Shown: positions 7,192 through 22,450, numbered from the stretch's first letter. The stretch is 64,000 bases of DNA from an uncultured delta proteobacterium (GCA_963763745.1 CAVXQJ010000001.1:130431-194430); one strand, 5' to 3'. Notes: generated from the sequence alone by a model not told the origin. Translations and numbers: made by a program.

Positions 7192-10100
7192 TCACTTCGC
7201 ATAAGCCTCCAAAGCCGCATCACAGTCATCCACGACCATCCGGTGCCCATTGGTCTTCGCGAGCTGACGCAGACTGTGGAACGCGTGCTTCGCCTCTTCG
7301 TCCTTCCCACGCCGCTGAAGGAGCCGCGCGCGGAGGAGTCGCCCGCTGATGACGTCCCACCAAAACGCGTTCGCTTCCGCGTAGGCGATTCCCTGATCGA
7401 GCAGCTTGTCGCCTTCGACGTCGCCTTTGTGGCCGGCGAGGAACGCGAGGAGCATGCGATTGTGCTGCTGCAAACGCTCGAACGCGTACTCCTCGCACAG
7501 CGAGAGCGACTGCTGCAGCGCGCCGTACGCGCGCGCGAAATCATCGAGGCGAATGAGCACGTCGCCGAGGTTGTGCAAGTTGACGGCGACCTCGTACGTG
7601 AGGCCGAGCGCGCGCGCCATGTCGACGGCCTTCTCGATCTCGACCGCGGCGAGCCTGAAGTCGCGGAGGAAGTAGTGCATCAGTCCGCGTAGCTTCTGTC
7701 GCTCGCACGCCGCGGCGGTGTCGTCGGGAATGAGCTGCTCGGCGCGATCGAGCGCGAGCTTCGCGGCAGCGCGATCGCCGAGCGCCGCGTGCGCTTGCGT
7801 GAGGTTCGTGAGGATCTTGTGCTCCTCTTGCTTGTCGCCTTCGACCGTCGCGAGCTTCTGCATGCGCACGAGCAGCTCGAGCGAGCGATTGAAGTCGCCG
7901 CGACGACCCGCGAGCTCCGCCGACGCGACGAGCACGATCTTCAAGAGCTCGTCGCGCCCCGCGGCGATGCGTTCGGCCTCCGCCAAGTGCGGCGTGGCCG
8001 CTTCGAACTTGTGGAGCGCAACCAAGATGCGCGACGCCGCGACGCGCGTCCTCACGCGTAGCTCCGCGTCGTTCTCTTTGTCGAGGCGCGCGATCACGCG
8101 CACGCACGTGTCTTCCGCCTCCGGCGCGGCGCGCACCATGCGCACGCCGCTCGCGAGCGCGTCGAGCCAAGCTGCGAGCACGCGCGGCTCGCGCTTCGTC
8201 ATGTCGCATAGCTCGATCGCGCGCGCGTAGTCGCGCACGGCTGCTTCGAGCTGGCGCGCTTCGAGTCGGTGCTCTCCGCTCTTGGCGAAGTACGTCGCCG
8301 CGCGATCGCGATCGCCCGACTCGTAGAAGTGCGTCGCGATGCGCGCCGCTTGCTCGTACGCGCGCTCGCCGAGCTCCTGCTCGAGCGCGAGGCCCGCGGC
8401 GGCGTGCATGTCGCGCGCCGCGTCTTGCGGGAGCGCATCGACGACGACCTCGCGCACGATCGGCGACGTGAAGTGCAGCTCCGACGCGCCGGTGTGCGCG
8501 AGGAACTCGCTCGTCTTCAGCGAGCCGAGCGAGCGCTCGAGCGTGGCGAGCGGTTGATTGAGCATGCGCGCGAGCACGGCGGAGTCGATCGGATCGCCGA
8601 GCACCGCGGCGGCTTGCAGCGTCGGTCTTCGCCGCGCTCTCGAGGCGCGCGACGCGCGACGCAACGAGCCCGCGCAGCGTCTTCGGCAGGGCGAGCTCTT
8701 GGCCGAGGAGCTTCATCGAAACGACGCGACCTTCGCCCACGGTGACGCGCGTTCGCGTCGAGCAAGCCCTTCATGACCTCCTCGACGAACTGCGGATGCC
8801 CGCCCGCGCGCTCGCGCACGAAGCGAAGGAGCTCGTCCGGCGCGCGTCTGCGTTCCGAGACGCAGCGCGACGAGGCGGCTGATGTCTTCGGTCGCTTTCA
8901 GATCGGTCAGATCGATCGACACGTGCGATGCGCCCTCGAGCGGGTGCGAGAAGCCTTCGCGCGCGGTGAACGCGAACACGACGCGCGCGTGCGAGAGCTT
9001 CTCGAACGCGGCCGCGAGGATCGAGAAGCTGTCCTCGTCCATGTTGTGCGCGGCGTCCCATGCGAACGTGTGCGGCTTGTCCTCGCAGAGCGAGATCACC
9101 ATGCGCGCGAACGCGCGATCGCAGCGAGCTCTTCGCGTTCGCGCCCGAGTACGTCGGCACGTTCGCGCCGAGCGCGGTGAGCATGGCGCCCACGTCTTCG
9201 TCGTGCAGGCCGAGCGCGCGAAGACGCGGCTGCACCGCGATGACGCGCTCGGACGAGTCGCCCTCGCCCACGCCGCACAATACTTGCAACATACACACGA
9301 TTCCCGAGAGCGGATATTCGCGCCCGCGCGGCGGGCACGTCGCGATGTAGAAGCCGACGTTGTAGTCGCCCTTGCCGAGGCGGCGCTCGACCTCGAAGAG
9401 GAGGCGCGTCTTGCCGACGCCGTGATCGCCGCGGATCGTGAGAACGCGGCGCTTGCCGTCGCGTCGCGGAGGCGAGCACCTCGCCCACTTTGCGCAGCTC
9501 GTCTTTGCGTCCGACGAAGCGCCCGAGCGCTTCGTTCGGACCGCGTACGTCTTTGACGAGCGACCCCGCGAGCGATGGGCGTTGGCGTCTTCGATTGCGC
9601 GGCGTCCGCATCGGCTCGAAGATGAAGAGGCCGCTGCACTTGGCGCATCGCCGCGCGCGGAGATCGCGAGTCGCCCTTCGCGCGCGCGCGCGAAATCGCG
9701 CGCCGTCGAGACGAGGCTTCAGGCGTTCGTCGTCGGTGGGCGTGCCCTCGGACGAGACGTGGATGCGCCCGGTGTGGAGGCCGCGCGCTCGTTGCGCGGC
9801 AGGCCCCGTGAGCGCGCGCAGCGTGACGAGCGCGCAGCGCGTCGCGACCTCCGTGTCACGGCCGTCGGGATCGCCGCAAGCCGAAGAGCGCGGCGAGCTG
9901 CTCCGGCTCGCGCCTCACGACGTGCCCGCCGTAGCGCGCGAGATCTGCGCGGCGTTCGCGCACACCGTGTTCTCGCGTGCCGCGCGGGAGCTCGAGTACG
10001 AGCGCCGTCACTTCGCGCCGCTCGCCCACGCTCGCAGCGCGCTCGACGTCGACGAAGCGCACGCCCGTGTCGATGCGCGCGATGCTCGACGAGATCGCAC

Positions 10101-11188
10101 GCGACGGCGGAACCTCGACGGGCGTTCGCTCTTGCGCGTGTGCGCCTTCCGTCTCGAGCGATGCATCGCCGAGCGACGGCGCGGACGACGCCGGCGCGGC
10201 TCTTCGCGCTGACCGAAGCGCACGATGAACTCGCCAAGTCGTGCGCGCCGTAACGCCCGCCCGCCGAATAGAGGAACGCGAGGAGCGCTTCGTAAAATGC
10301 GCCCGCGTCGGAGTAGCGATCCTTCGTGTCCTTCGCCATCGCGGTCTTCAGGATCGTGACGAGCTCGGCGCGGCGCGTCGGGTCGCAAGAGCTCGACGGG
10401 CGGGTACTCGCACGCTTGAACGCGCCGCAGCGTTTCGAACGTCGTCGGCGCGCTGAACGGATTCACGCCCGCGAGGCACTCGTAGAGGACGACGCCGAGC
10501 GAGAAAAAATCGCTGCGCGCATCGACCGATCTCGCCGCGCGCTTGCTCCGGGCTCATGTAACCGAATTTTCCGTGGAGCTGGCGCGTGCGCGTGTCTTCG
10601 AGATCGTTCGCTCGAGCACGCCGCGCGCCTTCGCGATGCCGAAGTCGGTGACCTTCACTTCGCCTTCGAGCGAGAGCAAGACGTTCTGCGGCGACACGTC
10701 GCGGTGCACGATGCCGAGCGGCTTGCATCTGCCTCGTCGCGACGGCGATGCGCGTGATCGAGACCCTTCGCGACCTCGGCGGCGACGAACACGCACATCT
10801 CGATCGGCAGCGACCTTCTGCTGACGGCGACACCGCGCGAGGAGCGTCGCGAGGTCGAAGCCCGTGCACGAACTCCATCGCCATGTAGTAGGCGTCGGGT
10901 TGCTTGGCGCCCGAGGAGCTCGGTCGCCCGGCGCGATGCCGAGGTCGAACACCTGCACGATGTTCGCGTGCGACAGACGCACCGCGAGCTTCGCCTCGTG
11001 GATGAACATGTCGACGAACTGCTTGACTGCGCGCGAGCTCGGGCAGGATGCGCTTGATGACGAGGACTTTTTCGAAGCCTTCGACGCCAAAGCTCTTCGC
11101 TTTGAACACTTCGGCCATGCCACCCTGGCCGAGCCGTTCGAGCAAACGATACCGACCGAACGGCTGCGCTCATCAGCGAGCTCGTCAT
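7192..11188 (-). pseudogene. large Ser/Thr protein kinase-AAA ATPase-TPR signalling protein (PknK/STAND-like), split over at least 6 reading frames
   Basis: The kinase subdomains ([46 protein letters not shown]), the NTPase motif FVGRKDELRKVGEVL and the 490-aa C-terminal TPR-like region (7192..8664) all lie in different frames on the same strand. Confidence 0.7.
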
Positions 11189-11245
11189 GTTTGCATCAGT
11201 GGATTGCGATGCCTCCGCACGGTCCCGAGCCGAAGTAGTCCGTCG

Positions 11246-21552: not shown

Positions 21553-21553
21553 A

Positions 21554-22450
21554 TCAGCGCCGCCTGCGCGGGCGGCGAATCGCGATGACGCCCGCGGTCG
21601 GTGCGGGCTCGGGATCCATCGGTGGGAGTGCGAGCACGAGACGCTCGATGAGGAGCAAGTGATCGCGTAGCGCGCGCTCGGCGCGGAGCATGTCGAACGC
21701 TTTGTCGAACACGAGGATCAGCACGTAAATCGCGGCGAAGCTGCGCGCGACGACGCCGTAGTGCTCGGTGCGAACGTTGTAGGCGAGGTGGCCACCGCGG
21801 TGGAGCTGCGACGTCACGGGGAGCGCGCGAATCTCGGCGACGGCGCGCGTCGTCAGCGGCGAAGGTTGCCCCGGTGGCGGCGTCTGCGAGCTTCGCTCCT
21901 TGTCGTCGTCGTCGTCGTCGCCTGCGTCGAGCGCGGCGATGAGATCGCGGTGCGACTCGTGGATGCGCTCGACGCGTTTGCGCGCCTCCGCGTTGAGCGG
22001 GATGACGTTCGCTTTCGTCGTCGCGATGGGACCGGCGACCGCGCCCCACACGATCGGCGAGTGCGCGTCGATGACGAGCGCGTCGACCGCTTCGGCGCGC
22101 GTGGCGAGCGCTTCGAGCTCGCGACGCAGCGAGCCGCGATTCGATCTGCGACGAACGCGCTCTTCGTTTTTCTGAGCGCCTTCGATCGCGCTCGCGAACG
22201 CCGACGAAAGCATGTCGAGACGTCGCTGGCGCGCGTCGAGGTCGGGCGGCGTCTCGTCGAACTGCACGACGACGTCCGTGCGCTCGCCGAGCGCCGCGAT
22301 GAGCACGAGCGCCGACGGCGCAGTCGTCCCGCGAGGCTCGGCGCGCACGTCCGCGGCGTCCATCTCACGCGCGACGAGCTCGAGAAATCGCGAGAGAGCG
22401 TCCTCGCTCACTGGATGGTCGAAGCCTTCGCGCGGCGCATCAGCTTGGCG
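21554..22450 (-). CDS. hypothetical protein (Asp-rich patch)
   Basis: ORF downstream of the histidine-kinase gene with protein-like composition (ALVIDAHSPIVWGAVAGPIATTKANVIPLNAEARKRV...). The 5' boundary is uncertain because of the frameshifted REC domain upstream. Confidence 0.35.
   Translation of the reverse strand, partial: RQADAPREGFDHPVSEDALSRFLELVAREMDAADVRAEPRGTTAPSALVLIAALGERTDVVVQFDETPPDLDARQRRLDMLSSAFASAIEGAQKNEERVRRRSNRGSLRRELEALATRAEAVDALVIDAHSPIVWGAVAGPIATTKANVIPLNAEARKRVERIHESHRDLIAALDAGDDDDDDKERSSQTPPPGQPSPLTTRAVAEIRALPVTSQLHRGGHLAYNVRTEHYGVVARSFAAIYVLILVFDKAFDMLRAERALRDHLLLIERLVLALPPMDPEPAPTAGVIAIRRPRRRR

Follow-up and report, generated by a model that had tools for sequence, protein, structure and literature searches.

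A stretch of 64,000 nucleotides (nt) from an uncultured delta proteobacterium (GCA_963763745.1 CAVXQJ010000001.1:130431-194430; hereafter the window) carried about 74-78 frame breaks between positions 8620 and 22658, identified by frameshift-aware alignment, and these affected eight conserved genes including lgt, which encodes prolipoprotein diacylglyceryl transferase. The breaks are very probably errors of the deposited sequence, left by a local failure of consensus building, polishing or gap filling, and not mutations of the organism. The original prediction had placed a frameshift-dense segment that disrupts conserved genes, lgt among them, at 8600-21600, and had preferred assembly indel errors to biological inactivation. 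Both claims were borne out, the second by stop-free corrected frames, normal third codon positions, exponentially distributed gaps between breaks, genes cut by the patch borders and the existence of a second patch. The segment itself was real, but it extended further than proposed, with breaks at 22561 and 22658 beyond its predicted end. It was not one uniform block, as a clean island of 2.7 kilobases (kb) divided it, nor was it unique in the window, as a second patch was present at 52.18-54.57 kb.

Breaks were located with a purpose-written local protein-to-DNA aligner that permitted frameshifts of +1, +2, -1 and -2 nt. Intact reference orthologues were supplied independently by two syntenic sequences, a Polyangiales metagenome-assembled genome (MAG; L001) and a soil-metagenome contig of 82 kb (L081), and gene identities were based on the Pfam and NCBIfam matches of intact orthologues. 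The closest relatives of the window (GC content 64-72%) were uncultured Polyangiales (Myxococcota), and at the protein level they reached only 83-85% identity. Among the matches listed for tsaE, the best relatives in the genome collection were two MAGs, L001 and L002 (74% amino-acid identity), and the top match of a poly-proline protein encoded nearby was L081 (83% identity). Synteny with L001 and L081 was unbroken in order and orientation from 3.7 to about 24 kb, across all patch borders. Alignments based on the two references yielded nearly identical break coordinates.

In a control in which L081 proteins were aligned to L001 DNA, the aligner called 0 breaks in the kinase, hydrolase, tsaE, poly-proline, MXAN_5187-like, CapK-like, SufS and flank genes, and the control stayed clean with L006 and L007, at identities of only 45-68%. 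Only the non-coding upstream extensions of stop-to-stop reference open reading frames (ORFs) gave false calls. Apparent breaks at 16842-17025, in the upstream ORF extension of lgt, and at 6905 and 7060, in that of ctlC, were artefacts of such stop-to-stop ORFs and were discarded.

The eight broken genes were distributed as follows:
7192 to about 11190, minus strand: Ser/Thr protein kinase gene with AAA_16 and TPR domains ('PknK-like'), about 1330 amino acids (aa), from Pfam and NCBIfam matches of orthologues; 22 breaks with L001 and 24 with L081, all within 8620-11158.
About 11338 to 13690, minus strand: CehA/McbA-family (PHP-type) metallohydrolase gene, about 790 aa, from NCBIfam NF038032 on the L081 orthologue; 23 breaks by either reference, all within 11362-12892.
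15358 to 16830, minus strand: lgt, from PF01790 on the L001 orthologue; 9 breaks (15616-16712).
16942 to 17782, plus strand: unannotated gene; about 9-12 breaks, most of their positions agreed on by L081 and L001, with up to 3 false calls near the 5' end in the control.
17798 to 18669, plus strand: gene of the MXAN_5187 C-terminal-domain family (NCBIfam); 2 breaks (17915, 18348).
19055 to 20338, plus strand: CapK-like or AMP-ligase-like gene, from weak family similarity; 1 break (19420) and a doubtful second one with L001.
20287 to 21552, plus strand: SufS-family cysteine desulfurase gene, from family matches of orthologues; 4-5 breaks (20494, 20679, about 21105, 21465 and possibly 21541).
22411 to 23975, minus strand: hybrid histidine kinase gene, from Pfam domains, translations and alignment; 2 breaks (22561, 22658), which spread the C-terminal receiver domain over three frames.

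Gene lengths equalled those of the orthologues, and every frame-shifting event fitted models of 1-2 nt. After correction, identity of the kinase to the references was 0.86-0.91 (0.91 to L081). The break counts given in the original prediction were several-fold too low overall (at least 5 in the kinase, at least 2 in the PHP hydrolase, at least 3 in lgt, at least 3 in the SufS-like gene and at least 2 in the gene at 16942-17782), and its counts of 2 for the gene at 17798 and 1 for the CapK-like gene were matched. Its gene names were broadly right, except that 'DUF1080-like', used for the gene at 16942-17782, was left unconfirmed by an orthologue that had no Pfam or NCBIfam match. Pfam gave no match for the hydrolase, the poly-proline protein, the gene at 16.9-17.8 kb or the MXAN_5187-like and CapK-like genes, and NCBIfam named only some of these.

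The L001 orthologue of Lgt matched PF01790 (E = 2.7e-45). Frame-corrected Lgt of the window was full length and stop-free, with an identity of 0.79-0.81 to the references. Compared with more than 100 intact Lgt proteins (450-500 aa), it reached 100% coverage and a top identity of 85%, and PF01790-annotated proteins were matched at up to 85% identity, also with 100% coverage. No second lgt was found within the 64-kb window. The argument that inactivation of lgt is implausible in a genome encoding lipobox proteins was qualitatively sound, but the count of more than ten such proteins in the window was not reproduced, about 4 being clear by a crude regular expression. Most likely, lgt, the kinase, the CehA/McbA hydrolase, SufS and the other genes are intact in the cell. 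No claim of lost lipoprotein maturation should rest on this locus, where lgt and the adjacent genes are almost certainly intact.

In this clade, Lgt ends in a C-terminal tail of about 70 aa (15361-15500, minus strand, in the window) that was highly charged and rich in Lys, Glu and Pro (KKKKKKKAEAEPEPEPEEEEEEE...). The Pfam LGT core has no such extension, and one similar in kind was present in L001.

The breaks were grouped into stretches of distinct density:
8620 to 12892: dense patch A, 4.27 kb with 47 breaks at a mean distance of 93 nt, covering the kinase gene over its 5' 2.5 kb and the hydrolase gene over its 3' 1.5 kb.
12893 to 15612: clean island, 2.7 kb, 0 breaks, covering tsaE and the poly-proline protein gene in full, together with the hydrolase gene over its 5' 1 kb and the 3' end of lgt.
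15613 to 17668: dense patch B, 2.05 kb with about 18-21 breaks at a mean distance of about 103 nt, covering most of lgt and the gene at 16942-17782.
17900 to 22658: sparse stretch, about 10 breaks in 4.8 kb (17915, 18348, 19420, 20494, 20679, about 21105, 21465, doubtfully 21541, 22561 and 22658).
52180 to 54580, plus strand: second dense patch, at least 14 frame hops by three-frame reading and the phase of third-position GC (GC3).

Spacing between breaks was exponential in patch A (Kolmogorov-Smirnov p = 0.37) and in patch B (p = 0.42), as for random events, and the probability of zero events in the clean island at the rate of patch A was 2e-13. Patch borders fell inside genes, independently of gene borders. 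The kinase gene was riddled over its first 2.5 kb and break-free over its last 1.4 kb (3'), and the hydrolase gene was perfect over its first 1 kb (5') and riddled over its final 1.5 kb (3'). The rate was equal in patches A and B and zero in the island, which suggests a few discrete states of sequence quality, such as steps in read support would produce. Net +1 shifts outnumbered net -1 shifts (48 vs 17; p = 1.5e-4). DNA alignments to L001 displayed isolated single-base insertions within well-conserved codon runs, in mixed-sequence context.

Two genes lay entirely within the clean island:
13670 to 14134, minus strand: tsaE, from PF02367 on the orthologue; 0 breaks.
14231 to 15313, minus strand: poly-proline protein, 360 aa, no family match; 0 breaks.
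Both had been predicted to be intact; 'short', as they had been called, did not fit a poly-proline protein of this length.

Once corrected, the coding frames of the affected genes were free of in-frame stops (0 in 2321 codons counted). The probability that a random substitution creates a stop in these codons was 0.0275, which gives an expectation of 4.4 stops for 160 neutral substitutions (probability of none 0.012) and of 11 for 400. By the time neutral decay had accumulated about 75 indels, it would also have left hundreds of substitutions and some 4-20 nonsense codons. In a three-way relative-rate test with the window, L081 and L001, private changes of the window equalled those of L081 at every codon position in clean zones (third position, 0.110 vs 0.111), and third-position private changes in the dense patches were also similar between the window and L081 (0.110 vs 0.103; 93 vs 97). 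As third-position changes were equal in dirty and clean zones, the segment and its flanks have a common history, and it is neither foreign nor chimeric.

The clustering of breaks was also detected without references. Many long ORFs passed a codon-position GC filter in both flanks and one alone did so within 8.7-24.4 kb, where the phase of the highest third-position GC jumped repeatedly on one strand. The reference-free scan was a codon Viterbi with a codon-versus-off-frame model, as a codon-versus-mononucleotide background was too noisy in DNA of 67% GC. Over the whole window it returned 44 stop-less same-strand frame switches, 35 of them in 8622-22656 and 7 in 52182-54582, so that 42 of the 44 fell in 26% of the window (clustering p about 9e-23). 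Outside both regions it returned one genuine isolated hop near 32550 and a site at 41607, the latter an ordinary gene junction and not a break. The hop near 32550, which joined the coding runs 32559-33537 and 31491-32559, was the sole break detected in the other 47 kb or so of the window.

The hops of the second patch linked an ORF of 1658 aa (47619-52595) to one of 1940 aa (53943-59765), and the two appear to be parts of one broken TPR-repeat gene of about 4000 aa (47619-59765), with long break-free stretches on both sides of the patch. The only close relative found for this gene was L095 (ENA contig_32120), in which it was fragmented into ORFs of 750, 646, 1148 and 730 aa. Being frame-broken throughout the TPR gene, L095 shows the frame changes of the window and is unusable as a clean reference. 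Because ORFs of 1156, 823 and 649 aa were intact elsewhere in the window and the sides of the TPR gene were clean, the remaining DNA is of normal quality.

All read-free tests run agree in supporting assembly indel errors, as the probable source of the breaks, over biological inactivation. For a few stretches of the contig (8620-12892, 15613-17668 and 52.18-54.57 kb, and more weakly 17.9-22.66 kb), the data behind the consensus would have been too sparse, or error-prone and unpolished. Candidate causes are coverage by only one or a few long reads, the filling of gaps between accurate contigs with long-read sequence, and stretches missed by short-read polishing. In each case, random single-base indels would remain in the consensus, about one in every 100 nt, and insertions would exceed deletions roughly threefold. 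Low coverage, one of the technical causes named in the original prediction, is viable. Loss of coverage driven by GC content was rejected as a sufficient cause, as the stretch at 54.6-59.7 kb (70-72% GC) was clean.

The signature, which was non-homopolymer, insertion-biased and substitution-poor, resembles the stochastic error of PacBio continuous long reads (CLR) more closely than that of nanopore, 454 or Ion Torrent sequencing. Errors of CLR are considered stochastic, with a substitution:insertion:deletion ratio of 22:45:33, and share with the window an excess of insertions over deletions, few substitutions and essential independence of context (PMC9713900). The likeness is one of signature only, as a multi-read CLR consensus would normally clear most such errors. 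Residual nanopore errors are typically homopolymer-linked, unlike the breaks of the window. Long-read gap closers put sequence of 88-97% identity into accurate assemblies (PMC8848313), and the confinement of errors to stretches between accurate sequence is a property that the window shares with their products and with long-read assemblies generally (PMC12007338). As in indels of long-read and hybrid assemblies, ORFs were split by 1-nt events, were fully repaired by reference-guided frame correction and contained no nonsense codons.

The same class of defect was found in the long-read assemblies L002 and L095. L002 (long-read MAG MFD01872; including L002:12994-16967) had about 10 scattered single-base breaks in 20 kb, 3 in the kinase, 3 in a flank gene, 3 in the poly-proline gene and 1 in the hydrolase, which suggests that low-level indel errors occur in long-read MAGs of this clade. 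The density of breaks in the dense patches of the window (about 1%) was 10-20 times that of L002, yet well below raw CLR error.

Several points weigh against a technical origin. It was deduced from the assembled sequence rather than observed in reads, and an error rate of about 1%, lower than in raw CLR reads, is higher than in a normal polished consensus. Private changes at codon positions 1 and 2 were in excess in the dense patches (92 in the window vs 53 in L081, counted with 24 nt on each side of every break left out). This excess was attributed to compensating indel pairs that escaped detection or to a few substitution errors. It is the one result with which a short phase of relaxed selection would agree as well.

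Genuine pseudogenisation of the 14-kb block, perhaps with a second functional lgt and other genes elsewhere in the genome, is a very unlikely reading. Myxobacterial genomes are large and rich in paralogues, which would leave room for it, as would the excess of private changes at positions 1 and 2 as a possible product of relaxed selection; the search for lgt covered the 64-kb window, and a second copy could lie elsewhere. Frameshifts in many adjacent conserved, normally essential genes are also seen in reductive pseudogene clusters such as those of Mycobacterium leprae and of recently host-restricted bacteria. Real clusters, however, combine frameshifts with nonsense codons, larger deletions and insertion sequence (IS) elements, and decay with a deletion bias, gene by gene. 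The window had net +1 and -1 shifts alone, free of nonsense (about 75 frameshifts vs 0 nonsense codons), and in patches blind to gene borders. Net +1 events dominated, and no large deletions or IS elements were present in the block; decay of bacterial pseudogenes is reportedly deletion-biased (Mira, Ochman and Moran 2001; Kuo and Ochman 2009). Third positions showed no excess of changes, the locus retained its ancestral syntenic context, the borders left the 3' end of the kinase gene and the 5' end of the hydrolase gene perfect with the rest of each riddled, and the identical defect recurred in an unrelated gene 30 kb away.

Equally improbable is homopolymer-type sequencing error (454, Ion Torrent or nanopore), in which run lengths are miscounted at G/C runs, although it would be the commonest source of frameshifted ORFs in long-read bacterial assemblies (PMC12007338, PMC9713900). 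The original prediction had put forward a homopolymer-prone assembly as one source of the errors and had proposed counting whether the indels fall in G/C homopolymers. That count went against it: runs of at least 3 bases within 6 nt were at background (26% of breaks vs 28% of random positions), 92% of breaks had no run of at least 4 within 6 nt, and only one of the three runs of at least 5 bases in patch A had a break within 8 nt. The slight excess of runs of at least 4 (8% of breaks, 5 of 65 sites, vs 4% of random positions) allows a small contribution. Insertions prevailed and sat in mixed-sequence context, the opposite of the homopolymer deletion bias of Oxford Nanopore reads (PMC9713900). 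Homopolymer slippage as the main mechanism is largely refuted.

A less probable reading still is that the extra bases are real and stem from a recent, localised, insertion-biased mutational burst that struck several stretches of the chromosome, for example through resynthesis by an error-prone polymerase. In that case a second lgt would keep the cell alive, or the metagenome would have captured the sequence of a dead or non-viable lineage. The residual probability that the indels are real amounts to a few percent.

A chimeric or foreign segment, whether it arose by a misjoin, by the collapse of two strains or species into one consensus, or by horizontal acquisition of a divergent copy, is very improbable. 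Patchy quality could in principle track regions of strain collapse in a metagenome assembly, but order and orientation were continuous with L001 and L081 over every patch border, third-position distances to both were equal in dirty and clean zones, and no phylogenetic or k-mer break was seen at the patch borders. Strain mixing predicts substitutions and not a 1% excess of single-base insertions.

Recoding by programmed ribosomal frameshifting, transcriptional slippage or RNA editing, for which the fully open corrected frames are the only point in favour and not a specific one, can practically be dismissed, as the approximately 75 sites had no evident common context on inspection, runs of at least 3 bases, which slippery heptamers or slippage tracts require, were not enriched, spacing was random and ignored gene borders, and the orthologues of the relatives required no correction.

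For users of the record, the breaks are very probably a patchy sequence-quality artefact of a known kind and not a biological feature, and they carry no biological weight. Automatic annotation would call at least 8 pseudogenes or dozens of fragment ORFs at 8.6-22.7 kb and would break up the TPR gene, some 4000 aa long, at 52-54.6 kb, and the completeness and pseudogene statistics of the genome would be distorted. The frame-corrected coordinates permit repair of the record. Public assemblies of the clade do contain patchy, non-homopolymer, insertion-biased errors, and five signs recognisable from sequence alone accompany them: nonsense codons are missing, synonymous divergence is normal, the breaks are spaced in a Poisson-like manner, patch borders disregard genes, and the pattern recurs elsewhere.

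Some further observations concern single genes. The isolated hop at about 32540-32560 (minus strand) lay within one putative gene of about 680 aa, in which '...RDLDQARIDLY' was followed by '...AVYIPSSFAVLVTARSSREVV' across the change of frame. The L081 orthologue of the SufS-family gene (L081:3350-4699) matched the NCBIfam model 'family 2A encapsulin cargo cysteine desulfurase' with E = 3e-113, which is below the cutoff of the model, and this model scored almost as well as the SufS model. The poly-proline protein was conserved and clade-restricted, and every close relative encoded it in the interval from tsaE to lgt. Its N-terminus resembled a signal peptide, it contained 27 consecutive prolines, and its C-terminal half, rich in Gly and Phe, may be beta-barrel-like.

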